DNA of 64,000 nt from a virus (IMGVR_UViG_3300037468_000183:40081-104080), one strand, 5' to 3'; shown: positions 823-54,926, counted from the stretch's first letter. Notes: generated from the sequence alone by a model not told the origin. Translations and numbers: made by a program.

Positions 823-1109
823 GCGTCCTCCCTCGCTGCGTTCTCCGCAGCATTCGGCGCGAGCGCCGTCCGAATCACGTCACGCGCTTGCATCACGTTG
901 ACCGGCAGATATACGTGGTATTGGCTGCTCTGCTCCAGCAATCGCTGCACGTGCTCTAGCGCCGTGCGCAGGCGCGCGTTCTCGGCTTGCGCCTCATTTC
1001 GGACCAGTCGATACTGCTTCGTCAGGACAAGCACGTATTGCAGGCGCTCGCCGGTCGATTGCAGATAGTCGCGCAGGCGGTCGTTCTCGGCTTGCAGATC
1101 GTCTGTCAT
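819..1109 (-). CDS. Coiled-coil hypothetical protein
   Basis: GGAGG RBS; ATG at 1109 overlaps the MTase stop; QAENxRL heptads. Confidence 0.7.
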   Translation of the reverse strand: MTDDLQAENDRLRDYLQSTGERLQYVLVLTKQYRLVRNEAQAENARLRTALEHVQRLLEQSSQYHVYLPVNVMQARDVIRTALAPNAAENAAREDA

Positions 1110-2992
1110 GTGCGGGCCTCCGGTTTGCGAACAAACCATACATCCTCGTTCAGAATCGCCGCGTGCGGATTCTTCTCATTGGCGAGTCGGCGGAAAAAAC
1201 TCACCTTGTCGCATTTGAGCGACTTGTCCTCACCGAGCAGCCCCAATTGCGCGCCGTGATCGGTCGTCTTCCAGGCCGTGACGTGGAGCAGCGGATCGAA
1301 GCCAACTGATTCACACAGCGCCAACCACTGCTCCCCGAAGGGGACGCGCTGCTTGTTGCGCACGAAGTCGCCAGTGATCCAGGCCGCCACTGCGCCAGGC
1401 TTGAGCACGGCGTAGGTCTGGGCGACGATCTCGCGCGCGGCAGTCCAGAACGTGTCTGCCCGCAATGCGCCGACTTGCCCATCTGTGTCGCCGTAATTCG
1501 ACTGAAACATAGCAGCGCATCCAATGTTGGTAGGTGAAACGAATACATCCGGGCGCTTTGTCGTAAACTCACCTTTGGCGTATCGTTCGGCCTTACGTTG
1601 GCGGGCCGAATCATCATTGATCCCTGTATTGACGCTCGCCTCATACGGCGGACTGCTCACCGTCGCATCGAAGCCGTTGCCCGCTGGCATGGCGCCGAGT
1701 TGGCCGGGGGTGGCGCCGTAGCGTGCGCCCAGGGCCTTGCGCTGCTCCCAGCCGGCCGTCCCGCGAACGAAGTTGCCGTCAGCGTCGCGCAGTCCGCTCG
1801 CGCCTTCGTCTCCGCCTGGCCCGCCGTCGATGCGCGTCTCGGAGTAGGGTGGACTCGAAACACACGCCGAATACCCCTGCATCGTCAACGCCTGCGAGTG
1901 CTGGCCGGGCTTGTTGCCGGTGAGCTTGTCCGTGTCGATGCCGTTGCCGCCGTGCACGGTGTTGGCGCTGTAGGGGGGCGAACCAACTGCCGCCGAGTAG
2001 TCGCCGGGTGGCATCTGCTCCAGTTGCCCCGGTGTTGCGCCATAGCCAGGACGACGCGCTGTGCCTTCGGCGGCCCGGCGCGCGTCTTCAGCGGCATCCA
2101 AGCGCACGCTCTGTCCATCGTGACCAGTCGTGCCCGCATACGGCGGACTCGCAATCGCGCCATCGTAGCGCAGCGCCGCGTCGAAGTCGCCGGGTGGCAG
2201 CGCGCCCAGTTGGCCGGGCGAGGTGCCGTAGGACGCCACTTGCATTGTTCTTCCGGGGCGCGCTTCGGCATTGAATGCTGCATCTGTGCTTTGTAAGCTC
2301 CCCTGAAACGGCGGCGACGACACGACCGCATCCGCTTCCGCCACGATCTCCGCCAGCCGGCGCGAGTCGCCTTGCAGCACGCGCGCCGTGCCATAGCCGG
2401 GGAAGTGCGGCGCGTAGCGGGCGCGCCATGTCTCCAGGTTGCCGGGCTGATATTCGGCGCAAGGCACGGCGCGCTTGGCTTCCAACTGGCGCAGATGTGC
2501 CTGAGCTACAGTCAATTCGCTGGCGTAGTTCTCGCGCTCAGCATCCGTGATAGGGCGGGGTGGTTCCCAAGTGGCATCGGTTTCGTCATACCTGCCGGAC
2601 GATTGGATGCCCGTTTTTAGGATGGCCTCCAGGTCGCGCACGTGTTGGCGCTGGCGGTCAAGCTCGGCTTGGTTCTTGGCGCACGCCGGGCACAGATGCA
2701 AAGTGTTGCAGGTGTAGCCGCGGCACAAGTCAACGAACTTCGGCTCCAATTCCATGCCCGTCCAGTGCAGGCCATACAACGCGGCGTGGAAGGCGCAGCC
2801 GCCGATGCCGCCGAACGGATCAACAACTTTGTCACCAGGGGCCAGCCAACCTTCGGCCAGCATGTGGCGATAGATGCGCTCGGCCAGGCCGAAAGATATC
2901 TTTGCCGGATGCGCGTAGGCTTCAGCGGCCAACGGTGCGCTCTGCCACGAACCATCATAGCAGCCGAACCACTCAGTTTGCATTGGGGCCAT
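1106..2992 (-). CDS. DNA amino-methyltransferase (N4-C/N6-A type) with five tandem SPP(Y/F) motif-IV repeats
   Basis: N-terminal HPAK, motif I DPFGGIG, GMELEPKF, QGDSR, five SPPY/F copies, C-terminal VLKPG. Confidence 0.85.
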   Translation of the reverse strand: MAPMQTEWFGCYDGSWQSAPLAAEAYAHPAKISFGLAERIYRHMLAEGWLAPGDKVVDPFGGIGGCAFHAALYGLHWTGMELEPKFVDLCRGYTCNTLHLCPACAKNQAELDRQRQHVRDLEAILKTGIQSSGRYDETDATWEPPRPITDAERENYASELTVAQAHLRQLEAKRAVPCAEYQPGNLETWRARYAPHFPGYGTARVLQGDSRRLAEIVAEADAVVSSPPFQGSLQSTDAAFNAEARPGRTMQVASYGTSPGQLGALPPGDFDAALRYDGAIASPPYAGTTGHDGQSVRLDAAEDARRAAEGTARRPGYGATPGQLEQMPPGDYSAAVGSPPYSANTVHGGNGIDTDKLTGNKPGQHSQALTMQGYSACVSSPPYSETRIDGGPGGDEGASGLRDADGNFVRGTAGWEQRKALGARYGATPGQLGAMPAGNGFDATVSSPPYEASVNTGINDDSARQRKAERYAKGEFTTKRPDVFVSPTNIGCAAMFQSNYGDTDGQVGALRADTFWTAAREIVAQTYAVLKPGAVAAWITGDFVRNKQRVPFGEQWLALCESVGFDPLLHVTAWKTTDHGAQLGLLGEDKSLKCDKVSFFRRLANEKNPHAAILNEDVWFVRKPEART

Positions 2993-15242: not shown

Positions 15243-15271
15243 ACTATAGCACGTTTATACACGTTTGTCAA
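15243..15271 (-). promoter_or_regulatory. Leftward sigma70-type early promoter
   Basis: TTGACA-17 bp-TATAGT on minus strand, in an AT-rich island. Confidence 0.85.
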
Positions 15272-15343: not shown

Positions 15344-15372
15344 TTGACAATCTGTTATAATGGGCTTAGACT
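15344..15372 (+). promoter_or_regulatory. Rightward sigma70-type promoter
   Basis: TTGACA-17 bp-TAGACT followed by AAGGAG RBS. Confidence 0.75.
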
Positions 15373-15393
15373 ATAAACAAAGGAGCAACAACA

Positions 15394-15603
15394 ATGAGCG
15401 AAAACGAATATCTTACCGTGGATCAGGCGGCGGAGCGTGCCAACCGCCACGCGCAGACGATCAGGAATTGGGTACGCTCAGGCAAACTACCTGCCTTTCG
15501 CCTGGGGCAATCGTATTTAATCCGGCCCGAAGACCTCGACGCAATGTATCAGCCGGTGCAGGTCAAGCCGGTGACGACCGTCGAGCCGGAGGTGGCGCCA
15601 TGA
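15394..15603 (+). CDS. HTH_17/excisionase-like DNA-binding protein
   Basis: YLTVDQAAE...HAQTIRNWVRSGKLPAFRLG. Confidence 0.9.
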   Translation: MSENEYLTVDQAAERANRHAQTIRNWVRSGKLPAFRLGQSYLIRPEDLDAMYQPVQVKPVTTVEPEVAP

Positions 15604-15899
15604 CCTGGCCTGCATCGGGCTGGACAACGCCGCTTGGCGAAACGTCGCCGCTGATTCATGGCGTCGTTCTGGCATTGCTGGCGCTGACGATCTGGATGTA
15701 CGGCCATTATTACGTCTGGCCGGTCGTCGTGCGCATCGGACAACGCGTGCCACGGCCAACGCCGCGTATGCGCACGGCTCAGGTCGCGCCACAGCCAGCG
15801 GCGGCCGATGAGGTGGACGTAATGGCGGCTGATACTGAAACCGTAGCTCAGACGACGCGGCGCGGCAAATACAACATGGGATTCGACTGGGAGCGTTAG
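15600..15899 (+). CDS. Single-TM membrane protein
   Basis: GGAGG RBS, ATGA coupling, hydrophobic GVVLALLALTIWMYG. Confidence 0.7.
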   Translation: MTWPASGWTTPLGETSPLIHGVVLALLALTIWMYGHYYVWPVVVRIGQRVPRPTPRMRTAQVAPQPAAADEVDVMAADTETVAQTTRRGKYNMGFDWER

Positions 15900-15902
15900 G
15901 CC

Positions 15903-17405
15903 ATGAGCGGTGGAAGGTTCGCACTTGCACTGGTGGCTGGCGGGGTCGTGATTGCCGTCTGCGTGATCGCGCTGAACTTTTTCGATCCACCGGCGCAGAG
16001 CGTGCGCGCCACGAGCGCGGCGTTGACCATCGCTGAGCAGCAGGCGCTCGCGCCGACCTGGATGGACGTCAAGCGCGGACTGCTGACAAGTGCGGGCATG
16101 GGTGGTTCGGTGCTGATCGTCTCGCTGTGCCTGGGCCTCTCGTTCCTGGTGCTACGCGAGCCCTTGCTCCTCCGCCATCACAAAGGTATCTTCCCCGCGT
16201 TCTTCACCATCCTCGGACTGCGCGCCAGCGACCCGCCCGGCAACCCGGAGGCGCACGCTGAGTATGCGCGTGTGGCTGGCGTGCAACGTCCGCTCGGTCG
16301 TCCGGCGTTGCCGCGGCCCGACGCACAACTGGCGCTGCCCGCGCCCGATGATCTCACTGTCGAGCTTGATCCCGTCGAGGTCTTGGCTCCCGAACTGGAT
16401 TCGCATCCGCACAAACTCATCATTGCCGAGAGTCGCTTCGGCAAAACCAACTTGGCGTGGGCCATCATCCGGCGCTATCAAGCGGCGCTGCCGGATTGCG
16501 AGTTCCTGGTGCTGTCGATGATCGAAAGCAAGTGGCCCGATCTGCAAGTCGCATCCACCGGCGCGCAGATGTTGGCGGCGATGACCGCCGTCGAGCAGGA
16601 ATTGATCCGGCGCGACAATCTGCTGAAGCAACTCCGAATCACGGACGTGCACGAGAGTGACGTGCTGAACGCGTTCGCCGTGGTCTTCGATGAGGTCGAG
16701 ACGACTTTCGAACTGATGTCCGGCGCACAGCGCACCGAGTTTCGGCGGCTGGTAACGCGCTACGTCAACCAAGCCGGCAACGTCAAAGGCGCGTTGATCT
16801 CGCTGTCGCAAACCGGCTCACGCGACATTCTGCCGAAGTCGATCCTGGCGAATGCAGATTTGTATATCGGGCGTTGTGGCACCTACGTGCCGGCGTCGTT
16901 CTCGATCCAGGAACCGGTGCTCGTGAACGCGCTCAGCCGGGCTGAGAAGGGCCAGTGGTATTCGTATCGTCATCGGGCCTGGTTCACGGCTCCGCTGGTC
17001 AAACCGCCACATGATGTGCGGCTGTGGAGTGGCTGGAAGCCGACGCTGGAACTCACCGCCGATGGCGAGGCGGATGGCATGGGTGCCAATGATGCACCGG
17101 ACGGCGCAGCCCTACCCCTACTCCCTACTGACGGGGAGGGGGGGGTGTGGCCCGATTTCGGAGTAGGGGTAGGCGTAGGCGACAGTAGGGGATATACATT
17201 TGCCATCGATGAGACCTTCAAGCGGCGCGTTCTGGAGGTTTGGGATGGTCTGGAGAAGCCGAACTATACTGCCGTCCAGAAGATTATGTTTCCCGATCAG
17301 GAAGACGGCGGGGCGCACTGGAAGGCCATCAAGGCGGTCATCATCGCGCGCCGTGAGGTAGAGCGCCAGCGGCATCGCAAGCAATACCTGGAGGCAACAG
17401 CATGA
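15903..17405 (+). CDS. Membrane-anchored FtsK/SpoIIIE/TraB-like P-loop ATPase
   Basis: Two N-terminal TM segments; PHKLIIAESRFGKT (Walker A), ELIRR, AVVFDE (Walker B), SLSQ; C-terminal helical domain. Confidence 0.75.
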   Translation: MSGGRFALALVAGGVVIAVCVIALNFFDPPAQSVRATSAALTIAEQQALAPTWMDVKRGLLTSAGMGGSVLIVSLCLGLSFLVLREPLLLRHHKGIFPAFFTILGLRASDPPGNPEAHAEYARVAGVQRPLGRPALPRPDAQLALPAPDDLTVELDPVEVLAPELDSHPHKLIIAESRFGKTNLAWAIIRRYQAALPDCEFLVLSMIESKWPDLQVASTGAQMLAAMTAVEQELIRRDNLLKQLRITDVHESDVLNAFAVVFDEVETTFELMSGAQRTEFRRLVTRYVNQAGNVKGALISLSQTGSRDILPKSILANADLYIGRCGTYVPASFSIQEPVLVNALSRAEKGQWYSYRHRAWFTAPLVKPPHDVRLWSGWKPTLELTADGEADGMGANDAPDGAALPLLPTDGEGGVWPDFGVGVGVGDSRGYTFAIDETFKRRVLEVWDGLEKPNYTAVQKIMFPDQEDGGAHWKAIKAVIIARREVERQRHRKQYLEATA

Positions 17406-17515
17406 AAGCCTGGCTATGGTTCGGCCTGGGCATGTTGACGATGTGGGTGCTCAGCAATCCGGGCATGTTCAAAGCCTGGCTGCTCAGCGCCTTCGCGATT
17501 ATGGGAGTACACTGA
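17402..17515 (+). CDS. Small hydrophobic membrane peptide
   Basis: GGAGG RBS, ATGA coupling; MKAWLWFGLGMLTMWVL. Confidence 0.55.
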   Translation: MKAWLWFGLGMLTMWVLSNPGMFKAWLLSAFAIMGVH

Positions 17516-17516
17516 C

Positions 17517-17999
17517 ATGGCAACCATCATCGTTGCCGCGCCGCAATGCACGCCGGCGCGCTACTGGCAGACGCGTGTCGAGGGCCAGCTTGCAGAGTAT
17601 GGCGCAAAACAGGCCGGCCTGCGCGTCGATGCGGAGGAAGTCGGGAAGTCCTACATCCGCATCAAGGTTGACGTTTCGGACGACTACGCCAACTTTGCCG
17701 AGTATACGCTACTGCGTTTCGGCTATCAGCAGATGTCGAAGCCCATCAATCCCAAGAATCAAAAGTTGGCGAAACGCTATCTCGACTTGGCGGCGGCTGG
17801 CGCATCATGGCAGGAAGCCGGCTGCAAGACGAAAAACAAAGGCGCGGTCATCGGGGAGCTTGGCGTGAGTGCGCCGGTGCCATCCTGGAAATCTCAGGGC
17901 AAACTATGGAGTCAAGGCTATAAGCCGGCGACCAAACGCCGCAAGGCGCGTCAGCACAAGGGTGCTTTGCGGACATGGCTGGAGGATTTGCTACCATGA
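17517..17999 (+). CDS. Hypothetical basic protein
   Basis: GGGAG RBS, operon packing. Confidence 0.65.
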   Translation: MATIIVAAPQCTPARYWQTRVEGQLAEYGAKQAGLRVDAEEVGKSYIRIKVDVSDDYANFAEYTLLRFGYQQMSKPINPKNQKLAKRYLDLAAAGASWQEAGCKTKNKGAVIGELGVSAPVPSWKSQGKLWSQGYKPATKRRKARQHKGALRTWLEDLLP

Positions 18000-18187
18000 C
18001 CCTGCCGCAACTGCTCGCCATCGCCGCTGGCATCGCCAGCATCATCCTGGTGCTGATCGACAACGAGCGCATCGCGGCACGCTCACCGCCAACGGACGCC
18101 ACGGAGGACACGCCCGAACCGCAGCCGGCCATCCGGCTGAACTCATGGGATGAGCAGGAGCGATACATTCGGAGGGAGAAACCATGA
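17996..18187 (+). CDS. Small N-terminally anchored membrane protein
   Basis: GGAGG RBS; LLAIAAGIASIILVLI. Confidence 0.6.
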   Translation: MTLPQLLAIAAGIASIILVLIDNERIAARSPPTDATEDTPEPQPAIRLNSWDEQERYIRREKP

Positions 18188-18471
18188 CCGGAGCATATTG
18201 GCCCGCGGCGACTTGGCCCGCAGATGACAACACGGAGGAAGCCATGACCGGAACGACACCACCGAAACAGCCGAGCACGACACTTGTCGCGTACTGTCCA
18301 GAGTGCTTTGGGATGCGCATGATCCTGTGTCGCGAGAACATTGTGAGCGACCGGCCGCAAGCGTATTGGTTCGCCTGCACGGACTGTGGGGTAGAAACGA
18401 CTCATGCGCCAACGCTCAGCGCCGTCAGAGACATGGTGCGCTGGGTGCCGATTGACGCCACGCTGGACTAG
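18184..18471 (+). CDS. Zn-ribbon (Lar-like) protein
   Basis: CPEC...CTDC...W; alternative start at 18244. Confidence 0.55.
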   Translation: MTGAYWPAATWPADDNTEEAMTGTTPPKQPSTTLVAYCPECFGMRMILCRENIVSDRPQAYWFACTDCGVETTHAPTLSAVRDMVRWVPIDATLD

Positions 18472-18545
18472 GCTGGACGCACCGCAAATGGCAAGGCCGA
18501 CTTCTTGCGGAGTCGGCCTTGTCATTGTTGGGGCAGGTGGTGCGG

Positions 18546-18800
18546 CTATTCGTCGGTCTTCCGTGGTCTTCCTCCGAGCTTGCCATTGGCGGCGCTGCTT
18601 TTGGCCTTGCGCTCGCTGCGGATGCTGCCTAGTGCAGCGGCGGCGGCGGATGTCGCACCGTAACTTATCACCTCGGCAAACAGGGCCTTGATTGTCGCTT
18701 CGTCTTTTACGGCAAAGCACTTGCTGGCCCAGGGCCAATATGCGTCATTGTATGCGGAGCACTTGGCGATCAGTTCATCAATGTTAAGGTCGGGTTTCAC
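18546..18800 (-). CDS. Small basic DNA-binding-like protein
   Basis: SAAAAALGS..SERKAKSSAANGKLGGRPRK tail. Confidence 0.65.
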   Translation of the reverse strand: MKPDLNIDELIAKCSAYNDAYWPWASKCFAVKDEATIKALFAEVISYGATSAAAAALGSIRSERKAKSSAANGKLGGRPRKTDE

Positions 18801-18824: not shown

Positions 18825-18870
18825 CGCGTCACGTTGCCGCTTGACACGTGACGCGCATCGGATGTATGAT
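18825..18870 (+). promoter_or_regulatory. Promoter with an overlapping inverted-repeat operator
   Basis: TTGACA(18841)-18 bp-TATGAT(18865); CGCGTCACGT(18825)/ACGTGACGCG(18846) inverted repeat flanks the -35. Confidence 0.6.
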
Positions 18871-21015: not shown

Positions 21016-21044
21016 TTGCGTTTTCGCGCATCCGGGTGTATGCT
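21016..21044 (+). promoter_or_regulatory. Putative late/packaging operon promoter (near-leaderless transcript)
   Basis: TTGCGT-17 bp-TATGCT, 9 nt before ATG 21054; no SD. Confidence 0.5.
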
Positions 21045-21053
21045 TGTGACGCC

Positions 21054-22409
21054 ATGAATCTAAGCGAGTTTCGTCCCGCACGAGTCAACGCAAATCGCCA
21101 CACGGCGCGCGGCATCGGCGCGCTCGAAAAGAGCATCCAGTCAGACGGCTGGATCGGCGCGATGACCACCGCCGCCGATGGCGAGATGATCGCCGGCAGC
21201 GCCCGCATCGAGACGGCGGCGGGCGTGTTCGGCGTGGACGCGGAGCCGGTTGTCATCCACAGCGACGGCAAGCGGCCTATTGTTGTCATTCGCGATGACA
21301 TCCCGAACGCGTCAACGAAGGTCGCGCAACGGCTGGCGCTGGCGGACAATCGCATTCACCAGCTTGACCTGGACTTCGACGTGCAGGTGCTCACCAGCTT
21401 CGATGCCGACGTGCTGGAAGGCTTGTGGACGGGCGACGAAATCAGCGACATGGGCCAGCAGTGGGCGGATGAGCAGAGCCGCAACGCCGAAGACCCCGGC
21501 GCGCAAGTGGACAAGGCGGAGGAACTGCAAGCCAAGTGGCACGTGCAACCCGGCGACCTGTGGGCGATGGGTGACCACCGTCTGCTGTGCGGAGATTGTC
21601 GGGAGCCTGCATCCTGGGTGCGCTTGCTTGCGGGCGTCAAGGCCAATGGCGTTTTCACATCCCCGCCTTATGCCGAGCAGCGCAAGGAGCAATACGGCGG
21701 GACACCAGCCGCCGAATACGTGGCATGGTGGGAAGCGGTGCAGGCCAACGTCAAGGCGCATCTCGCGCCCGATGGTTCGTTCTTCGTGAACATCAAGCCG
21801 CACTGCGCAGACGGCGAGCGTGTGCTGTACGTGTTTGATCTGGTGCTGGCGATGAAGCGGGAGTGGGGCTGGCGTTTCGTGGATGAGTTGTGTTGGACAA
21901 ACCGGGGATTCCCTGGCGAGCCGCAAGACAGATTCCAGAACGCTTTTGAGCCGGTATATCACTTTTCGGATGGAAAAATCAAGTTTCGCCCAAAGGCCGT
22001 TTGGCATTCAAGCGATTCGGTTCCCGTACACAAGGCGGGGCAGAACTTCAGGCAATCCAATCGAGGAAACGGCTTTGAGAGTCCAGACGTAGAAAGCGGG
22101 ATGGCCTACCCTCGCAATGTCCTGGATATCCCAAATGGCAATGGCGGAGATTCGCGACACGCTGCCGCCTTTCCAGTCGCGTTGCCTGACTTCTTCGTGC
22201 GCGCCTACTCGGACGCCGGCGACGTGTGGCTTGATCCGTTCTGCGGCAGTGGCACGACGATTGTCGCCGCGCACAACAACAAGCGGCGGGGATTCGGAAT
22301 CGAGATGCTGCCGAAGTATTGCGCCGTGATCCTGGAACGCATCAGCGGCCTGGGGATTACGCCTGCACTGTTGAGCAATGGGGGAACTGTGGCCGATGGC
22401 GGGCGCTGA
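21054..22409 (+). CDS. ParB-like N-domain fused to N4/N6 DNA methyltransferase
   Basis: NANRH...IAGSAR...LALADN; HRLLCGD, FTSPPY, HAAAFP, DPFCGSGTT. Confidence 0.9.
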   Translation: MNLSEFRPARVNANRHTARGIGALEKSIQSDGWIGAMTTAADGEMIAGSARIETAAGVFGVDAEPVVIHSDGKRPIVVIRDDIPNASTKVAQRLALADNRIHQLDLDFDVQVLTSFDADVLEGLWTGDEISDMGQQWADEQSRNAEDPGAQVDKAEELQAKWHVQPGDLWAMGDHRLLCGDCREPASWVRLLAGVKANGVFTSPPYAEQRKEQYGGTPAAEYVAWWEAVQANVKAHLAPDGSFFVNIKPHCADGERVLYVFDLVLAMKREWGWRFVDELCWTNRGFPGEPQDRFQNAFEPVYHFSDGKIKFRPKAVWHSSDSVPVHKAGQNFRQSNRGNGFESPDVESGMAYPRNVLDIPNGNGGDSRHAAAFPVALPDFFVRAYSDAGDVWLDPFCGSGTTIVAAHNNKRRGFGIEMLPKYCAVILERISGLGITPALLSNGGTVADGGR

Positions 22410-23959: not shown

Positions 23960-25464
23960 TGGCTGATGACGTGCGGCTGAGTTTCCTGTCATGGTTGGCG
24001 CAGCAGGACACCGAGCGCGAGCAGGGTTATCGCTTGTATCGCGAGTATTATGATGGCGACCACGATACGCAACTCACCGACCGGATGCGCAAGTACTTGC
24101 AAGTCAAATCGCACGTCGAGTTTCGCGCGAATTATTGTCCCATCGTCGTGGACGCGCTGGCGGAGCGTCTGAACATCACTGGCATAACGGCCGAGGATCA
24201 ATCGGCGGTGCTGTGGGGCTGGTGGACAGCGGGCCGCCTCGATGGCTTGCAGGTGGTCTTGCACACGGCGGCGCCACGCGACGGGGACGCTTATGTGCTC
24301 GTGGAATGGGACGCCGAAACCCTGACACCCAAGTTCTTCTTCGAGCCGGCTTTCGACGGCGGCGATGGCGTGCAGGTGGTTTATGACGACGCGACCAACA
24401 CGCCAAGCATGGCCATCAAGCGTTGGCGCGCCAAGTCGGGGCCGGGGGCGGGCTATCTGCGGCGCATCAACGTCTACTACCCGGATCGCGTCGAAAAGTA
24501 TGTGTCAAGCGACAAAGACCAGAGCGGCCAGTGGCAGAAATTCAAGGAGGACAACGAAGCTTGGCCGATGCCGTGGCTGCGCGCGGACGGGCGGCCGATG
24601 GGCATTCCGATTGTCCACTACAAGAACCGCGATCAAGGCACGAACTATGGGCAGTCCGAACTCAAGGACGTGCTGCCGCTCCAGAACGCGCTGAACAAAG
24701 CTGTCATCGACCTGCTGGCCGCGGCGGATACCACCGCCTTCCGCATTTATTGGATGCTTGGCGACGATCCGTCTGCCGTGTCCGTGTCACCCGGCTCATG
24801 GGTCTACAGCACCAAGCCGCCATCGGGCGACGACGCGGCCAGCCTAGGCTATTTCCCCGGCGAAGACCTTGCCAATCTGATCGGCCTCAAAGACTCGCTC
24901 GCGATTGAGATTGCGCGAGTATCCAGGACGCCGGTAAGCTACTTCCAGGTAAGCGGCCAACGGCCAGCCGAGGGCACGCTCAAACAGGAGGAGAGCGGTC
25001 TCGTCGGACGGGCACGTGCGCGCATGGTGTCATTCGGCAATGCCTGGGAGGACGCCTTCGGCATTGCGCGCAAGATGTGGAATGAATGGGGCGACGGCGA
25101 TCCGCTCGATGAAGCCGTGCCGATCACGATTGTTTGGAAGGATCCGGAAACGCGCAACGACAAGGCGCTGTTGGAAACGCTCAAAATCAAGGCTGATCTG
25201 GGCGTGCCGAAACAGCAGCTTTGGACAGAGATGGGCTACAGCGCCGACGAAATCGAGCATATGCAGGAGATGGTAGACGAGGAACAGTCCAGCCAGGCTG
25301 ACCTGGGCGAGACGTTGCTGAACGCCTTCGAGAAAGCGCCACGCATGGCGGCGACGGGCCAGATGCCGCCACAGATGCCGGCGCAGGCGACCGAGATTGC
25401 GCAGGCCGAGCCGGAAGATGAGATGGACGGTGATGGCGGCGGGGTGCCGAGTGATGCCCGATAA
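23959..25464 (+). CDS. Portal protein (SPP1 gp6-like)
   Basis: YYDGDH, NYCPIVVDALAERL, GQSEL...LQNALNK; position after TerL. Confidence 0.9.
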   Translation: MADDVRLSFLSWLAQQDTEREQGYRLYREYYDGDHDTQLTDRMRKYLQVKSHVEFRANYCPIVVDALAERLNITGITAEDQSAVLWGWWTAGRLDGLQVVLHTAAPRDGDAYVLVEWDAETLTPKFFFEPAFDGGDGVQVVYDDATNTPSMAIKRWRAKSGPGAGYLRRINVYYPDRVEKYVSSDKDQSGQWQKFKEDNEAWPMPWLRADGRPMGIPIVHYKNRDQGTNYGQSELKDVLPLQNALNKAVIDLLAAADTTAFRIYWMLGDDPSAVSVSPGSWVYSTKPPSGDDAASLGYFPGEDLANLIGLKDSLAIEIARVSRTPVSYFQVSGQRPAEGTLKQEESGLVGRARARMVSFGNAWEDAFGIARKMWNEWGDGDPLDEAVPITIVWKDPETRNDKALLETLKIKADLGVPKQQLWTEMGYSADEIEHMQEMVDEEQSSQADLGETLLNAFEKAPRMAATGQMPPQMPAQATEIAQAEPEDEMDGDGGGVPSDAR

Positions 25465-27142
25465 CGTCACGCTTCTCCAGGGCGACTGCCGCGACGTGCT
25501 GCGCGAGATGGCGCGTCAGAACGGCACAGGGCCGCGCTTCACGGCGCTTGTGACCGATCCGCCTGCGGGGATTTCGTTCATGGGAAAAGAGTGGGACAAC
25601 CCCAATGGCGTTTCCCGCACTGGTTCAGGCATCGGGCAGGAAGGCAAGGATGCCGATTATGACCGCTACGGCAAGGGTGCGATGCCCTACGGCTACAGCG
25701 GATCGAATGCCGGACGCAATATCACAGACCGAGAAGCCTTCATCGCAACCATGACCGAGATCGCCGCCCTCGCGCTCGACCTGTGTCTGCCCGGCGCTCA
25801 TGCGCTCGTGTGGGCGCTGCCACGCACGTCGCACTGGACGGCGACGGCCTGGGAGAATGGCGGGTGGGAAGTCAGGGACAGGATTCGGTACGCATCCTCG
25901 AAGGACGCCAAAGTTGCCGCATTTCTGGCATCGTTGACGGATGAGCAGCGCAAGGCGTTGGAGGTCATCTCTGACGATTCGGGAGTATCACATTGCTTCG
26001 GTTCTGGCTTCCCCAAGTCGCTCGACGTGAGCAAGGCACTCGACAAGGCCGCGGGCATGGAGCGGGAAGTGGTAGCGGGCCGAGGATGGCATCATTCAAC
26101 GGGGCGCGGGAATGGGATGGCGGGAAATGCCGATGAATCATGGCCTAAGCCATACGAGGCGGGAGATGCGGCACGAGGCGAACCTATCACCGCCCCTGCG
26201 ACCGCCCTGGCGCGCGAGTGGGCGGGCTACGGCTCGGCACTCAAGCCTGCCATCGAAGACTGGTGGCTGCTGCGCAAGCCGCTCGACGGGACGATCGCTG
26301 GCAATGCGGCAAAGCACGGCTGCGGGGCGTTGAATGTGGACGGATGCAGGGTGGAACTAGACGATGCTGCGAAGTCCATGCTTGGAAAGGCGAAACAGCG
26401 CACGAATAAGCCGAGCGGCAAAGGATTGCATCACGATCCTGATTCAACGGTTGAGCGCGAACGATTACAAGCCGAAATTGACACATTCAAAGCAAGCGGT
26501 CGCTTCCCCGCGCATCTCATCACAGACGGCAGCGAGGAGGTGACGGCGTGCTTTCCGTCACCGCATGGAGCTGGCTTCAAGAGGAATCCATATGCGGACG
26601 GCAAGGGAGAAACCGGCATTTATGGCGCTTATGGCGGCGAAGGTGTTGGCGGTGCGAGAATAGGCGACACCGGCTCTGCGGCCCGCTTCTTCGCCGTCTG
26701 CCCGCCGGATGCCGATGCGCCACGGCTCGCGTACATCCCGAAGGCGAGCCGGCGCGAGCGCGAGGCGGGGTGCGATGGGTTGGAGTTTCATGGACGAAAT
26801 GAGGTATACGGCGACGGATTCAACACGGCAACAAAGTGTGATCCGTCAATGCACACCACAGAAAGCGTAGAGGCGCGTCCGCAAGTGCGTAACGGACATC
26901 CCACGGTCAAGCCGCTTGCACTTTGCAGATATCTGCTCACCCTGCTGCGCCAGCCGACCGTCAACCTCGTGCTTGATCCATTCATGGGTTCCGGTTCGAC
27001 GGGCGTGGCGTGCGTGCAGCTTGGCATCCCGTTTGTGGGGATCGAACGCGATCCTGAGTATTTCGAGATCGCACGAAGGCGCATCGCACACGCGCAGGAG
27101 CAGATGGCGGCGCAACCGCTCGCGCAACTGGAACTGCTGTAA
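25454..27142 (+). CDS. DNA methyltransferase (beta class), DPPA variant
   Basis: QGDC, TDPPAGISFMGKEWD, GSGFPKS, LKPA.E, GRFPA, HPTVKP, DPFMGSGST. Confidence 0.85.
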   Translation: MPDNVTLLQGDCRDVLREMARQNGTGPRFTALVTDPPAGISFMGKEWDNPNGVSRTGSGIGQEGKDADYDRYGKGAMPYGYSGSNAGRNITDREAFIATMTEIAALALDLCLPGAHALVWALPRTSHWTATAWENGGWEVRDRIRYASSKDAKVAAFLASLTDEQRKALEVISDDSGVSHCFGSGFPKSLDVSKALDKAAGMEREVVAGRGWHHSTGRGNGMAGNADESWPKPYEAGDAARGEPITAPATALAREWAGYGSALKPAIEDWWLLRKPLDGTIAGNAAKHGCGALNVDGCRVELDDAAKSMLGKAKQRTNKPSGKGLHHDPDSTVERERLQAEIDTFKASGRFPAHLITDGSEEVTACFPSPHGAGFKRNPYADGKGETGIYGAYGGEGVGGARIGDTGSAARFFAVCPPDADAPRLAYIPKASRREREAGCDGLEFHGRNEVYGDGFNTATKCDPSMHTTESVEARPQVRNGHPTVKPLALCRYLLTLLRQPTVNLVLDPFMGSGSTGVACVQLGIPFVGIERDPEYFEIARRRIAHAQEQMAAQPLAQLELL

Positions 27143-29833: not shown

Positions 29834-30295
29834 ATGGCGACTAGGGGCTTTGAATTCGGGTACATGCTCGACGGGAGCATGGCGACACCCGTCATTCGCG
29901 ACTTCATCCTGAGCACGGCGGCGGCGCACAAGGCCGGCGACCTGATGGTGCTGGACTCGGATGGCGATCTGACGCAGGCGGCGACCAACGCCACGGAAGT
30001 AACGGCGGTGTGTCAAGAGACCGTCGCTGCCGCGGCGATCACGGCGAGCACGACAAAAGCCAAATGCGCGATCATCACGCGCAACCAGGTTTGGCGCTGT
30101 TCGACGGATAACGATCACTGGAATGCCTCGTGGGTCATCGGCTACACCAAGACCGGCAACCTTGTGGACTGCAACACCATCGACCACAACGTGCCGACCA
30201 GTGGCGGCATGATCCTGGTGGACACCGGCACGGATGACGAGGGCAAGGCAATGGGTTATGTCATCTTTGCCGATACCACGTTCGGCAACGCATAG
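29834..30295 (+). CDS. Capsid decoration/cement protein, paralogue 1
   Basis: Between scaffold and MCP; GFEF...GDL.V pattern. Confidence 0.7.
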   Translation: MATRGFEFGYMLDGSMATPVIRDFILSTAAAHKAGDLMVLDSDGDLTQAATNATEVTAVCQETVAAAAITASTTKAKCAIITRNQVWRCSTDNDHWNASWVIGYTKTGNLVDCNTIDHNVPTSGGMILVDTGTDDEGKAMGYVIFADTTFGNA

Positions 30296-30304
30296 GAGGC
30301 GAAC

Positions 30305-30760
30305 ATGGCTACTGCTGGATTCGAGTTCGCCTACTCTCTGGACGGCAGCCACGCGACGCCGGTTATCCGGGATCTCCCGGTACACGGCACCGGGGCCTAT
30401 GCCATCGGCGACCTGGTGGTCGTTAACGGTTCTGCGGGCGGCGAGGTGGTGCGCGTCACTAGCACGACCGCGGAAGTAACCGGCGTGATGCAGGAGACGC
30501 GGGCGTCCGGGTCGGATGCCGCGCTAATGAAGGTCGCGCTCATCATGCGGGAACAGGTCTGGCGTTGCTCGATGGACGCGGCGACCACGGCGTTCGTCGT
30601 CGGCTACACCAAGAGCATCGACACGACGGATCACAACACCATCAGCGCGAGCGATTCGACTGGCGGCAAGATGATCCTGGTGGACAAGTCTGAACTCGAT
30701 GGCGACGGCAACGTTCTGGCCTACGTGGTGTTTTCGGATACCACGTTCGGCAATACATAG
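30305..30760 (+). CDS. Capsid decoration/cement protein, paralogue 2
   Basis: Tandem paralogue of the preceding gene. Confidence 0.7.
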   Translation: MATAGFEFAYSLDGSHATPVIRDLPVHGTGAYAIGDLVVVNGSAGGEVVRVTSTTAEVTGVMQETRASGSDAALMKVALIMREQVWRCSMDAATTAFVVGYTKSIDTTDHNTISASDSTGGKMILVDKSELDGDGNVLAYVVFSDTTFGNT

Positions 30761-30772
30761 GACAGGTGACAC

Positions 30773-31681
30773 ATGGCAATCTCCGAACAATGGGCGCAGT
30801 TGCTCGAACCGGGCCTGCGCGAAGTTTTCTATCACACGGTGGAGCCGTTGGCGACCGCCAGCCGCATTCCACTGCTGTTCGACGTTGGCGGTAGCACGAA
30901 GGCCGCTGAGTCATTCCTGAGCGCCGGCGCGATGGGCAACTGGAAGACCTTCAAGGGCGCTATCGAGTATGACGACATCGACCAGGGCTACAAGACCACC
31001 CTGACGCACGAGGAATACGTGCAGGGCTTCAAGATCGAGCGCAAGCTGGTCGAAGACGACCAGTACGGGCTGTTCATGGATCGCCCGGCTGAGCTGGCAA
31101 TGTCGGCCATGCGCACGCGCGAGAACCATGCGGCGAGCGTGTTCTCCAACGCCTTCACGGGCGGGGCCACTGCGGGCGGCGATGCCGTGGCGCTGTGCTC
31201 GGACTCGCATCCCAATTCGCCAGCCAACGCCGGCTCGACGCAGGACAACAACGGCTTGCTCTCGCTGAGCTACGCCAACGTCGAAGCCGTGCGCCAACTG
31301 ATGCGCGCTTGGAAGGACGACCGCGGCAATCTGATTCCCGTCAATCCCGATACGCTGCTGGTGCCGGCTGAGTTGGAGAAGACGGCCTTCGAGATCGTGC
31401 GCACGGCGAACGTGCCGGACACGACCGACTACAAGGCCAACTTCGTCGCCGGCTTCATCCGCCAAACCATCGTCTGGGACTATCTGACGGATGCGAATGC
31501 CTGGTTCGTCATCGACTCGATGCGCATGAAGCAGGCGCTCAAGTGGATCGACCGGGTACCGCTGGAGTTCGCGCTCGATCCGACCAGCAATTTCCGGCTG
31601 GAGTCGCGCTGGCGCGGGTACATGCGCTACAGCTACGGCTTCAAAGATTGGCGCTGGATTTACGGGAACAACCCGTCATAA
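30773..31681 (+). CDS. Major capsid protein (Mu gpT-like family)
   Basis: LLEPGLREVF, ERKLVEDDQY, ALCSDSHP, PDTLLVP.ELE, YLTD..AWF, RYSYGFKDWR. Confidence 0.9.
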   Translation: MAISEQWAQLLEPGLREVFYHTVEPLATASRIPLLFDVGGSTKAAESFLSAGAMGNWKTFKGAIEYDDIDQGYKTTLTHEEYVQGFKIERKLVEDDQYGLFMDRPAELAMSAMRTRENHAASVFSNAFTGGATAGGDAVALCSDSHPNSPANAGSTQDNNGLLSLSYANVEAVRQLMRAWKDDRGNLIPVNPDTLLVPAELEKTAFEIVRTANVPDTTDYKANFVAGFIRQTIVWDYLTDANAWFVIDSMRMKQALKWIDRVPLEFALDPTSNFRLESRWRGYMRYSYGFKDWRWIYGNNPS

Positions 31682-31705
31682 GGCTACAGCCTGAGGAGGG
31701 TTGAC

Positions 31706-32455
31706 ATGGCACAATCAAATCTGAGCGGCCCGCTCAACATCGACGGCGCGCTGGTGGTTGGCGGCGCGGCGACGATTGCGGGCGGCATCACTTTCAGCGG
31801 TGGCACGATCAACGCGGAGAACGCGTTGGACGTGACGGGCGGCACCATCACCGTGGCAGATGTGACGGCGACGGGCGTGGTGTCTGCCGGAAACTTCACC
31901 TCGTTGGGCACGGCGGGCATTCACAACGCTGTGACCGTCCACAGCCTCGTCAACGAAGGTGCGTATTCCGGCTTCGGTACAGTCGGCATCCATGAAGCGT
32001 TGTCTGTCCACAGCCTGGTTGACGAAGGCGCACTGACGGCGCTCGGCACGACCGGACTGCAAGCGACGACCGTCTTCGGGGCACTGAACGTCATCGGCAC
32101 GGCGGGCGTACACGCCGCGGTGTCGGTGCATTCGCTGGCCTCGGAAGGCGCGATCACCGCCACGACGATCTCCGGCACCGACCTGAGCATGGTTGGCACG
32201 GCGGGCGTGCATGGCGAATTGACGGCGCACAGCATCGTGGACGAAGGCGCGTTGACGACGCTCGGCACGCTGGGCGTGCATGGCACGGCATTCGGTTTCG
32301 GCACGCAGATTTTCGGCCAAGCCGCGACGATTCCGGTGGCGGGCGGCTTCATCGGCAACATCCGCTGGAATACCGCACCGGTGGTGACAGGGCCTATCGG
32401 GTGGGTCTGCACTGCGCCAGGCACCTGGTCAGCGTTCGGGACGATTGCCGCATAA
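31706..32455 (+). CDS. Head fibre-like protein with His-containing repeats
   Basis: Follows MCP; GTxGxHxxxxxHSxxxEG repeats; C-terminal GWVCT..GTW..FG. Confidence 0.6.
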   Translation: MAQSNLSGPLNIDGALVVGGAATIAGGITFSGGTINAENALDVTGGTITVADVTATGVVSAGNFTSLGTAGIHNAVTVHSLVNEGAYSGFGTVGIHEALSVHSLVDEGALTALGTTGLQATTVFGALNVIGTAGVHAAVSVHSLASEGAITATTISGTDLSMVGTAGVHGELTAHSIVDEGALTTLGTLGVHGTAFGFGTQIFGQAATIPVAGGFIGNIRWNTAPVVTGPIGWVCTAPGTWSAFGTIAA

Positions 32456-32464
32456 GGGGGGCCA

Positions 32465-32806
32465 ATGTTGACACAGATTGGTCTTCCACCGCTGACGACG
32501 AACACAACGGGTTCGGTCGTGAGCGTCACGCCGGTCGAGGCCGAGTTGCTGGCGATTTACGTCTCCAGCAACAGCCTGGGCACCGTGACGCTCGCGACCA
32601 CCAGTCCCGCGCCTATGACGATTATGACGCTGGACACGGTAGGTACGGCGTGGTTCTATCCACGCGTACCCCTCAACACGGCGGGCACTGCCGCGGGAAC
32701 GATCCTGCTTTCCGGCGCTTACGACATCATGCCCCTGACGGGCTACGTGCAGGTCAGCACGAACGCGGCGGGCACGGTCAATGTGACGCTGGTAGTGGAG
32801 ATGTGA
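32465..32806 (+). CDS. Small beta-rich virion protein
   Basis: Position and T/V-rich composition. Confidence 0.6.
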   Translation: MLTQIGLPPLTTNTTGSVVSVTPVEAELLAIYVSSNSLGTVTLATTSPAPMTIMTLDTVGTAWFYPRVPLNTAGTAAGTILLSGAYDIMPLTGYVQVSTNAAGTVNVTLVVEM

Positions 32807-32811
32807 TAGAC

Positions 32812-32839
32812 GAGGGGCGGACATGTCCGCCCCTCTTTT
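32812..32839 (+). terminator. Intrinsic terminator
   Basis: GAGGGGCGGACATGTCCGCCCCTC palindrome followed by TTTT. Confidence 0.7.
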
Positions 32840-32854
32840 ACAGGAGACAAAATC

Positions 32855-33448
32855 ATGGCAGACGAAGACACAACCTGGAAAGAGACGGTCGAACAGGCCA
32901 ACTCACAAAATCTCAAGCGTTTCGTTGACGAGTGGGCGGAGGTCTCGCACAACAAGGCGAGCCAGCAAGCAGGCCTCCAAGACTCGGTCAACAGCCTATT
33001 CCTGAAATGGGCGATGGACGCGCAGGGCATCACCAATCGCGCGGCAAACGACGGTGCGAACGTCAGCGCAACCCTCAACAGCGCGATGGCGTTGGCGTCG
33101 GCGCGCGGCAATGATGCTGCCGGGGCAATGCAGAACCTGATTCTTGCCGCGGCCCTGGGGCAGCAGGTGAGCATCAACAAGATGGCCGCCGAGACTGCGA
33201 GCGCGGATATTGTCGCCAAGAAAGCCGTGGACGCGGCAACGGCGGCCATGACCGGCACCAGTGCGCCGGCGCAAGGCACGTCCGGTTTCGCGCAAGGCTC
33301 GATCCAGGGCACGGGCGGCGTTGCGACATCGGCTATCATGGCGCAGATCACCAAGCTCGGTGAGGTCAATACCGCAGTGCTGGCTTCGTTGGCAGTACTG
33401 GCCGAGAAAGTCGCGGCGCTGGAAGTGGCAACCAAACCGGCTGCGTAG
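32855..33448 (+). CDS. Ala/Gln/Asn-rich helical hypothetical protein
   Basis: AGGAG RBS; flanked by hairpins. Confidence 0.7.
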   Translation: MADEDTTWKETVEQANSQNLKRFVDEWAEVSHNKASQQAGLQDSVNSLFLKWAMDAQGITNRAANDGANVSATLNSAMALASARGNDAAGAMQNLILAAALGQQVSINKMAAETASADIVAKKAVDAATAAMTGTSAPAQGTSGFAQGSIQGTGGVATSAIMAQITKLGEVNTAVLASLAVLAEKVAALEVATKPAA

Positions 33449-33471
33449 TAAGCGGAGTAAGCGGAGTAAGT

Positions 33472-33503
33472 TTGCCGCCTGTCTGACGCATTGACAGGCG
33501 GCA
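33472..33503. terminator. Stable hairpin (terminator or processing site)
   Basis: TTGCCGCCTGTC-loop-GACAGGCGGCAA, preceded by GCGGAGTAA tandem repeats. Confidence 0.55.
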
Positions 33504-33519
33504 AGAGGAAGTAGCGCCA

Positions 33520-33912
33520 ATGTCATTCACCTACGGGCGAGCATTGACCACGGATCGCGACCGGCTGCGCTTCTACATCGGGGACGTGACCAGCGGCAGC
33601 GGGCCATTGCCGGGCAGCGTCAACTTCACGGACGAAGAGCTTGACGGGCTGTTGACTACCGAGGGCGCATGGCAGCGCGCCGAAGCCGCGGCTTTCGAGC
33701 GCCTGGCGGCGGCATGGATGGGGCATCCATCATTCTCGGCAGATGGCCTGCAACTGTCACGCTCGGATATCGCAAAAGGTTATGCCGAGAAAGCCGCGGC
33801 TTTGCGCAAAAAGTATGGCTCATCCACGGCGACGAATGTCAGCCGCGTCGGATCGCACGCGGTTACGCGCGTCGATGGTTACTCGGACGATGTGACCAGT
33901 TGGGAGACCTGA
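33520..33912 (+). CDS. Head-tail adaptor (connector) protein
   Basis: DRDRLRFYIGD...FTDEELD.LL pattern. Confidence 0.75.
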   Translation: MSFTYGRALTTDRDRLRFYIGDVTSGSGPLPGSVNFTDEELDGLLTTEGAWQRAEAAAFERLAAAWMGHPSFSADGLQLSRSDIAKGYAEKAAALRKKYGSSTATNVSRVGSHAVTRVDGYSDDVTSWET

Positions 33913-38696: not shown

Positions 38697-38891
38697 ATGC
38701 CCAACGATCTCGGCACACTCGAACTCGATCCGAACGTCGTCTTGCGCGGCGCAGTGCTGCATATCCGGCTGGTCAACGTGCGCGCCTTGCGCATCCGGTT
38801 GCTGCTCACGGCTTGGCTGCTGTGTCTGATCGGCATTCTGCTGGATTGCTACATCGTATTTGACAAAGAGGACGCGGAGGAGGGCGCATGA
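38697..38891 (+). CDS. Small hypothetical protein
   Basis: GAGG RBS; hydrophobic C-terminal half. Confidence 0.5.
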   Translation: MPNDLGTLELDPNVVLRGAVLHIRLVNVRALRIRLLLTAWLLCLIGILLDCYIVFDKEDAEEGA

Positions 38892-39091
38892 GGCTACTGC
38901 TATTCCGAATCGACCTACAGCCGCAGTTTCAAGGGCTGGACTGGGAAGCCGTGCGCTTCGAGCATTGTACCGCCGAAGCTCAGAACGCAGTGCGCGCTGT
39001 GGGGATGGGGCAGTACTGGGAGATGGACGATTACGTTGACGGCGCGTATACCGACATTCGATCCGATGACCAGCACAAGACGGGTGCCTAG
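38888..39091 (+). CDS. Small hypothetical protein
   Basis: GGAGGAGG RBS, ATGA coupling. Confidence 0.5.
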   Translation: MRLLLFRIDLQPQFQGLDWEAVRFEHCTAEAQNAVRAVGMGQYWEMDDYVDGAYTDIRSDDQHKTGA

Positions 39092-39094
39092 TCG

Positions 39095-39475
39095 ATGACC
39101 AGCTTTATCAGCGCCGCAGAACTGACACAGATGCGCGCCGACGCCGCACGCACGTTGCTGGACGCAACCTGCACGCTGTTGACGCCGACTGCAAATGTCA
39201 ATGGCATTGGCGAGACAACGTTGACTTGGGGCACAGTTGGCGTTGCGGTGCCGTGTCGTCTGCGGCCGGCTGGTCTCCAGGCGCAGATGGTGCAGCTTGG
39301 CGGCCAGCCGCAAACGTCCGCTGACTGGCAATTGACGCTGCCGTTTGGCACGGTCACGGTTGCGCCAGGTGACCGCGTGGTGATCGACGGCGCAACCTTC
39401 GAGGTCAAACAAAGCATCGAGGAAGAAACGTGGCGCACGGCTGTGCGGGTGAACATGCTCCGCATTGAGGTTTGA
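39095..39475 (+). CDS. Head closure / stopper protein
   Basis: PCRL...LTLPFGT...GDRVVIDG.TFEV. Confidence 0.8.
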   Translation: MTSFISAAELTQMRADAARTLLDATCTLLTPTANVNGIGETTLTWGTVGVAVPCRLRPAGLQAQMVQLGGQPQTSADWQLTLPFGTVTVAPGDRVVIDGATFEVKQSIEEETWRTAVRVNMLRIEV

Positions 39476-39476
39476 C

Positions 39477-39857
39477 GTGTCTATCGTGACAACGGTGGTT
39501 TTCGACAACTTGCCAGCGCTGAACAAGCAGGCGACAGCGATGGCGGTGCAGGCGGTGAAGAAAGCCGCTTTCGATATCGAGGAGCACGCGAAGACGATTG
39601 TGCCTGTGGATACCGGCTTCCTGAAGAACTCGATTGCGACACAGGTCGGGGCCGATGGGTTGCACAGTCCACGGGGGTCATCTTCGCATCAGCACTCACC
39701 AGCAAACGACTTGACGGCCTACGTTGGGGCACACGCGGAGTATGCGGCGAATGTCGAGTACGGTCTCGGCCAACGACCGCAGCCGTACTTGCGGCCCGCA
39801 GTCGAGCGGGTGCGACCGGCGTTTATCGAGGCGATGAAGCAGATCGCGAAGATGTGA
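39477..39857 (+). CDS. HK97 gp10-like tail completion protein
   Basis: PVDTGFLKNSI, EYAANVEYG, PQPYLRPA. Confidence 0.9.
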   Translation: MSIVTTVVFDNLPALNKQATAMAVQAVKKAAFDIEEHAKTIVPVDTGFLKNSIATQVGADGLHSPRGSSSHQHSPANDLTAYVGAHAEYAANVEYGLGQRPQPYLRPAVERVRPAFIEAMKQIAKM

Positions 39858-54621: not shown

Positions 54622-54907
54622 TAGCAAGGTTTTTACGAAAGACCCGGAAGCCATTCTTGACTACGGCATTGACTGGCACGCCAACGACTGGCTTGGCGTG
54701 GATACCATTGCGACGGGTGCGACCGGCTCGACATGGACGGTGCCGAGCGGTATCACGAAAGTCTCGGACAGCAAGACGACGACAACGACCACCATCTGGC
54801 TGTCAGGGGGCACGGCGGGTGAGACCTATGCCGTTAAGAATCACATCATCACGGCAGGCGGGCGCGCGGAGGACTGCACGCTGTCGATTGTGTGTGAGTC
54901 GAAGTAG
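54614..54907 (+). CDS. Fibre-tail adaptor protein
   Basis: KDPEAILDYGIDW...W.VP.G...WLSGGT.G..Y...N.I.T..GR. Confidence 0.75.
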   Translation: MGDSKVFTKDPEAILDYGIDWHANDWLGVDTIATGATGSTWTVPSGITKVSDSKTTTTTTIWLSGGTAGETYAVKNHIITAGGRAEDCTLSIVCESK

Positions 54908-54926
54908 GCGCTCACAAGGGGTTGCT

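Follow-up and report, generated by a model that had tools for sequence, protein, structure and literature searches.

A candidate membrane-anchored DNA motor with a repeat array inside its gene, encoded by a family of uncultured phages

TcpA of the Clostridium perfringens plasmid pCW3 has two N-terminal membrane helices and works with a full conjugation apparatus that includes the VirB4-like TcpF, TcpH and the relaxase TcpM. In Streptomyces, the C-terminus of TraB binds 8-bp repeats in clt, and the spd genes are small, translationally coupled and encode membrane-bound products (PMC4447253). FtsK-like genes have also been annotated in phages for two decades without a known role, for example in Mycobacterium cluster J phages such as Omega (gp203; PMC3706429). 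Here, we describe a seven-gene operon that lies in a 64,000-nucleotide stretch of viral DNA (IMGVR_UViG_3300037468_000183:40081-104080; this whole stretch is referred to as the window) and that encodes an ATPase of 500 amino acids (aa) together with small membrane proteins. We regard it as an evenly balanced proposition that this ATPase is a sequence-guided, membrane-anchored motor for double-stranded DNA (dsDNA) acting on the phage’s own DNA. The proposal is made because the order of its parts is that of FtsK, TraB and TcpA, because its neighbours are conserved, because its gene contains an array of short repeats and is under purifying selection, and because TraB and clt provide a precedent.

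The ATPase consists of two membrane helices (residues about 6-24 and 60-84), a linker, a RecA-type core (about 150-380), a disordered linker (382-433) and a three-helix domain (436-499). It combines two N-terminal membrane helices with an FtsK-like domain, as expected of a TcpA-type coupling protein. In the AlphaFold2 (AF2) model, the core (residues 150-380) has a predicted local distance difference test (pLDDT) score of 80-90, and the best Foldseek matches of the model are TcpA (6o1x, E 7.5e-8), FtsK (2ius), EssC/EccC and HerA, with values ranging from 7.5e-8 to 1e-5. A word search of 5.8 billion proteins recovered four relatives of the ATPase, and a profile built from them found 112 representatives in 1.84 billion proteins, about 50 of which are 440-550 aa long and match over their full length. 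The family as used here comprises about 50 clusters at 50% identity, and motif and domain counts refer to 48 of its members. PF01580 is matched by 41 of the 48 (E<=0.01), and an hhalign comparison of the family with an alignment of the weaker profile hits gave 99.95%, with 32 of those 34 hits being PF01580 proteins. Against the PDB, the family profile found TcpA of pCW3 (4e-15), EccC (4nh0, 1e-13) and FtsK (1e-9), while the window ATPase itself matched phrog_1358 (“FtsK/SpoIIIE-like”) weakly (3e-4). The family signature reads PH.L..G.TGSGKS, hhhhEE.E and MGRK.GI.L...TQ, and two or three hydrophobic segments precede the Walker A motif in every one of the 48 members. On these profile comparisons, the family is best described as a phage-only, divergent and membrane-anchored branch of FtsK/SpoIIIE. 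The initial annotation of this DNA had proposed an FtsK/TraB-like, membrane-anchored ATPase, and this assignment holds, the protein being a member of the superfamily whose nearest solved relatives by AlphaFold/Foldseek and family profile are TcpA, EccC and FtsK.

At the C-terminal end, the AF2 model contains helices at residues 437-449, 455-462 and 471-499 (pLDDT about 70-85), and the family pattern in this region is W..G.S...(helix)..GY.GG..(helix), with one member matching HTH_32. The domain is accordingly predicted to be helix-turn-helix (HTH)-like. Its type varies among close relatives, as would be expected of a specificity module. P0002, a family member of 555 aa that is 60% identical over 79%, has a RuvA_C (PF07499) match and another type of C-terminal end, which it has in common with P0004 and P0005, all three being of the same motor clade. 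The occurrence of this other end in the three proteins indicates that the C-terminal module is swappable.

The codons of the linker that precedes this domain carry an array of CCTAC and GTAGG repeats (Table 1), a cluster with no counterpart elsewhere in the 64 kb; 200 Markov simulations gave a maximum of three sites per 100 bp. The relatives for which contigs were available (L004, L005, L006, L054, L066, L072, L063 and L064) are uncultured viral or metagenome contigs only. L004, whose protein is 47% identical, has the same 3+4 layout with its second GTAGG in another reading frame, and the peptides encoded by the two arrays differ (GVGVGVGDSRG in the window vs GVGRRPVGSRD in L004). Since the layout is kept while frame and peptide change, it is the DNA motif that is conserved and not the peptide. 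An exact-pattern scan with the left arm of the array matched the L004 contig only. Arrays of 5-9-bp repeats in both orientations, specific to each lineage, are found in the linker codons of seven of eight lineages. The same linker region holds CGTTCC (3+3) in L072, CGGTT (3+3) in L054, GGTGC (5+4) in L005 and five copies of ACAACCG in L066; in L064, CGGTACAAC is repeated directly four times with a period of 12 bp and also occurs in inverted orientation. Compared with same-size regions of each locus, enrichment gave per-locus P values of 0.007-0.35 in seven lineages (L064 left out) and a combined empirical P of 6e-4 over six (L004 and L064 left out). By its sequence and by analogy, the array may be read as a DNA-level site like the clt of TraB plasmids. 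A run of eight G is central to the array in both phages (17140-17147 in the window, 11237-11244 in L004), and every GTAGG unit creates a TAG stop codon in one of the two alternative reading frames; that slippage at this run might yield a protein without the C-terminal DNA-reading domain is pure speculation. L006 also has a 4+3 inverted ACACG array, at positions 193-260 in a gap between genes that lies 1.3 kb ahead of its ATPase gene.

The surroundings of the gene are conserved as well. Where flanks are long enough, the ATPase gene stands after early or replication-type genes; a terminase gene is found downstream of it in L004 and L005, and tail-type genes are near in L006. In the window, L063, L004, L054, L005 and L006, the gene immediately 5' of the ATPase gene codes for a small membrane protein. 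In L063 and L004, this protein is a homologue of the 99-aa protein of the window with a common N-terminus (WPGW..GE) and end (..WER), and L063 additionally retains, upstream, the terminal part of a gene homologous to that of the 69-aa HTH protein with which the window operon opens. L004 and L054 encode homologues of the 160-aa basic protein (56% and 29%, respectively), in each case in the gene that immediately follows the ATPase gene. Related phages thus carry the module in the same position, with early genes on one side and the terminase gene on the other. When window 17050-17999 is compared with L004 11150-12558, amino-acid identity is 77-97% and synonymous identity 65-82% in the last third of the ATPase gene, vs 30-55% and 25-55%, respectively, in the motor part, and the adjoining gene of the 160-aa protein is 56% identical. 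From these sequences, it looks as if a single mosaic unit has been swapped, made up of linker and C-terminal domain and perhaps also of the 160-aa partner gene. A tblastn search of 50,697 GenBank phage records detected no family member and gave core matches at 24-27% identity only. A scan of one genome per species gave weak core matches and no family member among the matches listed, and a metagenome scan found at least two short contigs with a family member.

In the motor itself, K181, D263-E264 and Q303 (the SQ motif being residues 302-303) are in register with the family and with FtsK and TcpA, and the motifs AESRFGKT, VVFDE and SQ are present as first described. The Walker A motif had been called atypical, and this is correct only in part: it fits the classical [AG]xxxxGK[ST] pattern, and it is atypical for the family, in which the first position is G in 47 of 48 members and A in the window. 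More notable departures than this A are the Arg178 and Phe inside the P-loop, which retains its Lys and Thr, and a missing family arginine. The best-conserved arginine of the family (GR), present in 90% of members or more, gives way to AGN or VGN in the window, P0001, P0002 and L063. In FtsK of Pseudomonas aeruginosa, the catalytic residue is E596, the sensor is T630-Q631 and the finger is R620 (bioRxiv 10.1101/2022.01.03.474797). Since R620 lies 11 residues before the sensor Gln, the family arginine is in the register of the trans-acting arginine finger of FtsK, and at this position the window has Gly292; the arginine finger that marks the FtsK clade is therefore absent from the window copy. 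The gain of an Arg in the P-loop together with the loss of the finger Arg (16773-16781, AGN) is seen in this sub-lineage only, and the pairing is still present in P0002 at 60% overall identity. It may represent a relocation of the catalytic arginine.

The window ATPase gene is under strong purifying selection. Compared with L063 over 311 codons, its ratio of nonsynonymous to synonymous substitution rates (dN/dS) is 0.10 at a dS of 0.56, which rules out a decaying or degenerate gene. The initial annotation had named a non-translocase family, a degenerate ATPase and a module that is absent from or randomly placed in relatives as signs that would speak against its proposal. None of these was observed, as the module stands at the same place in relatives and the dN/dS is low.

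As a dsDNA motor, the ATPase would most likely form a ring sited at the cytoplasmic membrane. The in-gene array (17111-17189) would be where the C-terminal domain loads this ring onto phage DNA, and the loaded ring would then pump phage dsDNA at the membrane or hold it there, with the co-translated small membrane proteins and the 160-aa basic protein as accessory parts. In this scheme, we infer the formation of a ring, DNA as the substrate, the pairing of the HTH-like domain with the array, and the direction and purpose of transport.

Several observations weigh against a dsDNA motor. Taken alone, the window ATPase gave no useful match in Pfam, NCBIfam, PADLOC, a PDB sequence search, a phage tblastn search or a PF01580 scan of the record, and its link to known families runs only through the family profile. 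In comparisons made with the family, the protein-export ATPases EccC and EssC score nearly level with the DNA translocases, and a DNA pump and a type VII-like protein-export ATPase are inseparable by sequence alone. The HTH-like assignment of the C-terminal domain draws on the full-length model and the sequence pattern, and the substitution of the finger arginine suggests that the ATPase cycle of the window copy may be different or weak. With regard to the array, L006 is the single lineage of the eight that has none in its linker, low-complexity linkers favour short repeats, and the arrays can fold as hairpins (L072, z -5.3). Moreover, the raised synonymous identity between the window and L004 spans the whole last third of the gene, so that recent recombination would explain part of the conservation of the array between these two phages.

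Table 1. Positions of the operon, its ATPase motifs and the flanking signals in the window
Feature	Position	Strand	Basis or remark
Leftward early promoter-like site, TTGACA-17-TATAGT, TG extended	15243-15271	-	Promoter scan
Operon promoter-like site, TTGACA-17-TAGACT, sigma-70-like	15344-15372	+	Promoter scan
69-aa excisionase/MerR-type HTH protein, operon gene 1	15394-15603	+	Pfam HTH_17 1.2e-14
99-aa single-pass membrane protein	15600-15899	+	Stop given as 1 nt before ATPase start codon
500-aa FtsK/SpoIIIE-superfamily ATPase	15903-17405	+	AF2 model, Foldseek, family profile
Walker A AESRFGKT, residues 175-182	16425-16448	+	Family consensus GxTGSGKS
Walker B VVFDE, residues 260-264 (D263, E264)	16680-16694	+	Invariant
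AGNVKGALISLSQ, Gly292 at the family’s conserved Arg position	16773-16811	+	11 residues ahead of sensor Gln303
Array of 3 CCTAC + 4 GTAGG around a G8 run	17111-17189		Within linker codons, before C-terminal domain
Predicted C-terminal three-helix HTH-like domain (residues 436-500)	17208-17402	+	AF2 and family pattern
37-aa hydrophobic peptide	17402-17515	+	GC content at third codon positions (GC3) 0.81
160-aa basic protein, isoelectric point 9.8	17517-17999	+	Homologues next to ATPase in relatives
70-aa single-pass membrane protein, acidic tail	17975-18187	+	Gene call
95-aa CxxC...CxxC zinc-ribbon protein, last operon gene	18184-18471	+	Gene call
Hairpin, 16-bp stem, 94% complementary	18487-18526		Between operon and convergent gene 18546-18800(-)

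The operon starts at one of two promoter-like sites that stand back to back, in a region where the promoter scan found seven sites vs 2.3 expected, and an AAAGGAG ribosome-binding site lies 5' of the ATG at 15394. Stops and starts of its genes overlap or abut throughout, and the GC patterns at the three codon positions (GC1/GC2/GC3) back the called frames; 15344-18526 is one translationally coupled operon, from promoter to hairpin. The parts listed in the initial annotation (promoter, HTH protein, membrane proteins, 500-aa ATPase and basic protein) are all in place, and the small membrane proteins are indeed translationally coupled to the ATPase. The 69-aa HTH protein also matches the TIGR01764 excisionase family above its cut-off (4.8e-12, 46 bits), and the 95-aa protein has weak Lar/zinc-ribbon matches (E about 0.03-0.05). 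The 160-aa basic protein falls into four clusters among 5.8 billion proteins; AF2-based BFVD and VIA-wide fold searches gave a generic ferredoxin-like N-terminal fold alone (Z <= 7.5) and no functional lead.

The 64-kb window is the right-hand part of a 104-kb IMG/VR virus record and reads as a single tailed-phage genome. A scan of the window flanks places a DnaB-like helicase, a PriCT primase part, a Gp3-like protein and a GIY-YIG nuclease on the minus (leftward early) arm, and a methylase, the terminase large subunit, an SPP1-type portal, Mu F, a capsid protein and a tape measure on the plus (rightward late) arm. The seven genes of the operon (15394-18471, plus strand) lie at the junction of the two arms. 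The phage context with virion genes and the divergence of the operon from the early arm were both recognised initially, and the terminase, portal and capsid genes and the back-to-back promoter-like sites bear this out. Beyond the operon, a minus-strand gene for 84 aa (18546-18800), whose product ends in GGRPRK, converges on it; a strong promoter-like site follows at 18841-18870 on the plus strand (TTGACA-18-TATGAT, 11/12 match), and a second promoter at 19165 lies ahead of a gene for an EAD7-domain membrane protein (Pfam EAD7 3e-16). N6_N4 DNA methylase genes number at least four and are scattered across the window (1106-2992, 21036-22409, 25397-27142 and 60221-61561). In the record (G000:C1), positions 30289-33711 and 38789-39773 are 86-87% identical to the tail-fibre and right-end regions of the window (54532-57961 and 63015-64000), and the first 40 kb carry a different late-gene set that is not a continuation of the same phage. 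The 104-kb record gives the impression of two related phages in succession, either joined during assembly or present as tandem elements, and the window alone would correspond to about one genome.

Several uses of such a motor can be considered. One version, which is the dsDNA motor with a purpose added by analogy, is spread without virions, as the initial annotation proposed; in a host that is multicellular, buds or sporulates, the motor would pump phage dsDNA across septa or from one cell or compartment into the next. A TraB-like pump with clt-like loading inside its own gene would then bring the genome into neighbouring cells or compartments by a second, virion-free route, conserved in the whole family of uncultured phages. 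The TraB/Spd-like architecture, the operon logic and the in-gene array fit this idea, SpdB2 homologues on actinophages have been suggested to spread phage DNA (PMC4447253), and the 104-kb record contains no tyrosine or serine recombinase that could be called an integrase. The filamentous host suggested in the initial annotation, on the other hand, is not borne out. The portal resembles actinophage portals at 27% identity, and scans of 401 Actinomycetota genomes (core-only matches, 75-78 bits) and 301 Planctomycetota genomes revealed no family member. Look-alikes in the atlas point loosely to viruses, Cyanobacteriota and Chloroflexota. In addition, no family member was found on 72,556 plasmids. 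Spread of this kind, and with it a second route conserved across the family, is graded here as unlikely.

Another possibility is that the protein tethers or partitions DNA, keeping DNA that is replicating, or that of a plasmid-like prophage, fixed to the membrane or the site of division and clearing it from closing septa, possibly with a host ParB acting on phage parS. Homology to FtsK/SpoIIIE, a candidate sequence-specific site on the phage DNA and the lack of an integrase noted above would all suit such a role. However, there is no sign of lysogeny or of a plasmid state, and neither ParA nor ParB was seen among the window genes scanned. The initial annotation had taken the operon for a lysogeny-phase module, and here the evidence points the other way: in addition to the missing integrase, no repressor was found among the window genes scanned, and in L005 the ATPase gene lies in a rightward operon divergent from a gene that resembles a CI-type repressor by sequence. 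This placement opposite the CI-like gene points to expression early in lytic growth and away from a lysogeny module. A tethering or partition role is rated as distinctly unlikely.

There is only a slim chance that the motor serves genome entry. In that case, an early-made translocase would grip the incoming genome at the array and pull in the rest, in a two-step process like those of T5 and phi29. The host-type promoter that drives the operon from the arm junction and the specific site carried on the phage DNA would be in keeping with this, but the ATPase gene lies deep within a long operon in L054 and L005, and no precedent for this ATPase family was found in the literature searched.

An equally slim chance is given to protein export or envelope remodelling, in which a one-domain EccC/EssC-like ATPase would export small phage proteins or serve lysis or exclusion, and the repeats would be an RNA or regulatory element. 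EccC and EssC are among the profile matches given above, the NCBIfam EssC/EccC models fit family members slightly better than TraB does, and the hairpin-forming capacity of the arrays would agree with a role in RNA. Against this, the window ATPase has a single ATPase domain without FHA or tandem domains, its C-terminal domain is predicted to be HTH-like, and the Pfam scan of the operon found no WXG100-like partner. The repeat pairs of the window are also ordered L1 L2 R1 R2, an arrangement that one hairpin cannot satisfy.

Least probable of these alternatives, if only slightly so, is a defence or superinfection-exclusion role against incoming competitor DNA for a phage-borne relative of defence ATPases (Mad8 of MADS, HerA-type) with an HTH partner. 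The PADLOC mad8 model is matched by family members (1.3e-14 and 9.8e-10) and mad1 by the 69-aa HTH protein (5.8e-7), yet the window ATPase itself has no PADLOC match, the HTH protein fits the generic HTH_17 far better than mad1, and the Mad8 profile, of 314 positions, has no counterpart of the N-terminal membrane part. Nor does the operon contain mad6 or mad7, both of which the published model of MADS requires (bioRxiv 10.1101/2023.03.30.534895). Membership in MADS was rejected, the mad8-like similarity of family members and the mad1-like similarity of the HTH protein being the only ones found and the other operon proteins having no PADLOC match. The Mad8 model is a close profile match to the motor of P0017 and P0010 (1.3e-14), and Mad8 is probably an FtsK/HerA-type ATPase related to the phage family. 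A packaging ATPase can be dismissed, as the phage already has an ordinary terminase large subunit and a portal.

Should the proposed dsDNA motor carry phage DNA from one cell or compartment to another, phages and conjugative elements would become harder to tell apart, and models of phage spread, host range and carrier state would change. Even a motor confined to tethering or importing DNA would add a new step to the life cycle of phages. In either case, the window copy offers a natural experiment in motor chemistry, with its finger lost, an Arg gained in the P-loop and selection remaining strong.

Among solved proteins, TcpA (pCW3; 6o1w/6o1x/6o1y/6o1z) is the best match to the window ATPase by both fold and profile and, like it, has one FtsK-type domain. 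TcpA and the family have the motifs PH.L..G.TGSGKS, hhhhDE and R..GI.L....Q in common, at an identity between TcpA and the phage ATPase of about 16%. Unlike TcpA, the phage family has a C-terminal domain predicted to be HTH-like and an in-gene repeat array, and the element is a tailed phage in which a partner conjugation apparatus or relaxase was absent from the window genes scanned; library scans of the operon and its flanking genes found no VirB4, VirB6 or relaxase families. Streptomyces TraB (pSVH1, pIJ101) resembles the phage ATPase in being a single FtsK-like motor that works without a type IV secretion system (PMC4447253). The TraB model NF041214 does not match the window ATPase, however, and matches family members weakly (2.5e-5, 20-23 bits vs a cut-off of 800). 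While the clt repeats are direct and 8 bp long, those of the phages are 5-9 bp, occur in both orientations and lie in linker codons; the regulator of the phage operon is an excisionase-type HTH protein rather than the GntR-type TraR of TraB plasmids, and the phage, unlike these plasmids, has terminase, portal and tail genes.

FtsK and SpoIIIE have the same order of anchor, linker, motor and C-terminal sequence-reading domain, the last of which is predicted in the phage protein, and their catalytic Glu and sensor Gln are in register with those of the window ATPase. The latter differs from FtsK in being much shorter, in having no alpha domain in its model, in the Gly at the R620 position and in Arg178, and its C-terminal domain has no FtsK_gamma match. 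EccC and EssC have tandem domains where the window ATPase has one, and family members reach 15-28 bits vs cut-offs of 346-778. The FtsK-like proteins of cultured phages (cluster J, Bacillus SPO1-like phages and PHROG 1358) are tailed-phage motors as well, with 24-27% identity over the core, although those of cluster J have no membrane domain (PMC3706429). A membrane-anchored, FtsK-like phage family with an in-gene array was not found in the literature searched. What the present family adds is the membrane anchor, a swappable C-terminal domain predicted to read DNA, and a matching, lineage-specific array inside the gene, and these three features together predict a specific protein-DNA pair.

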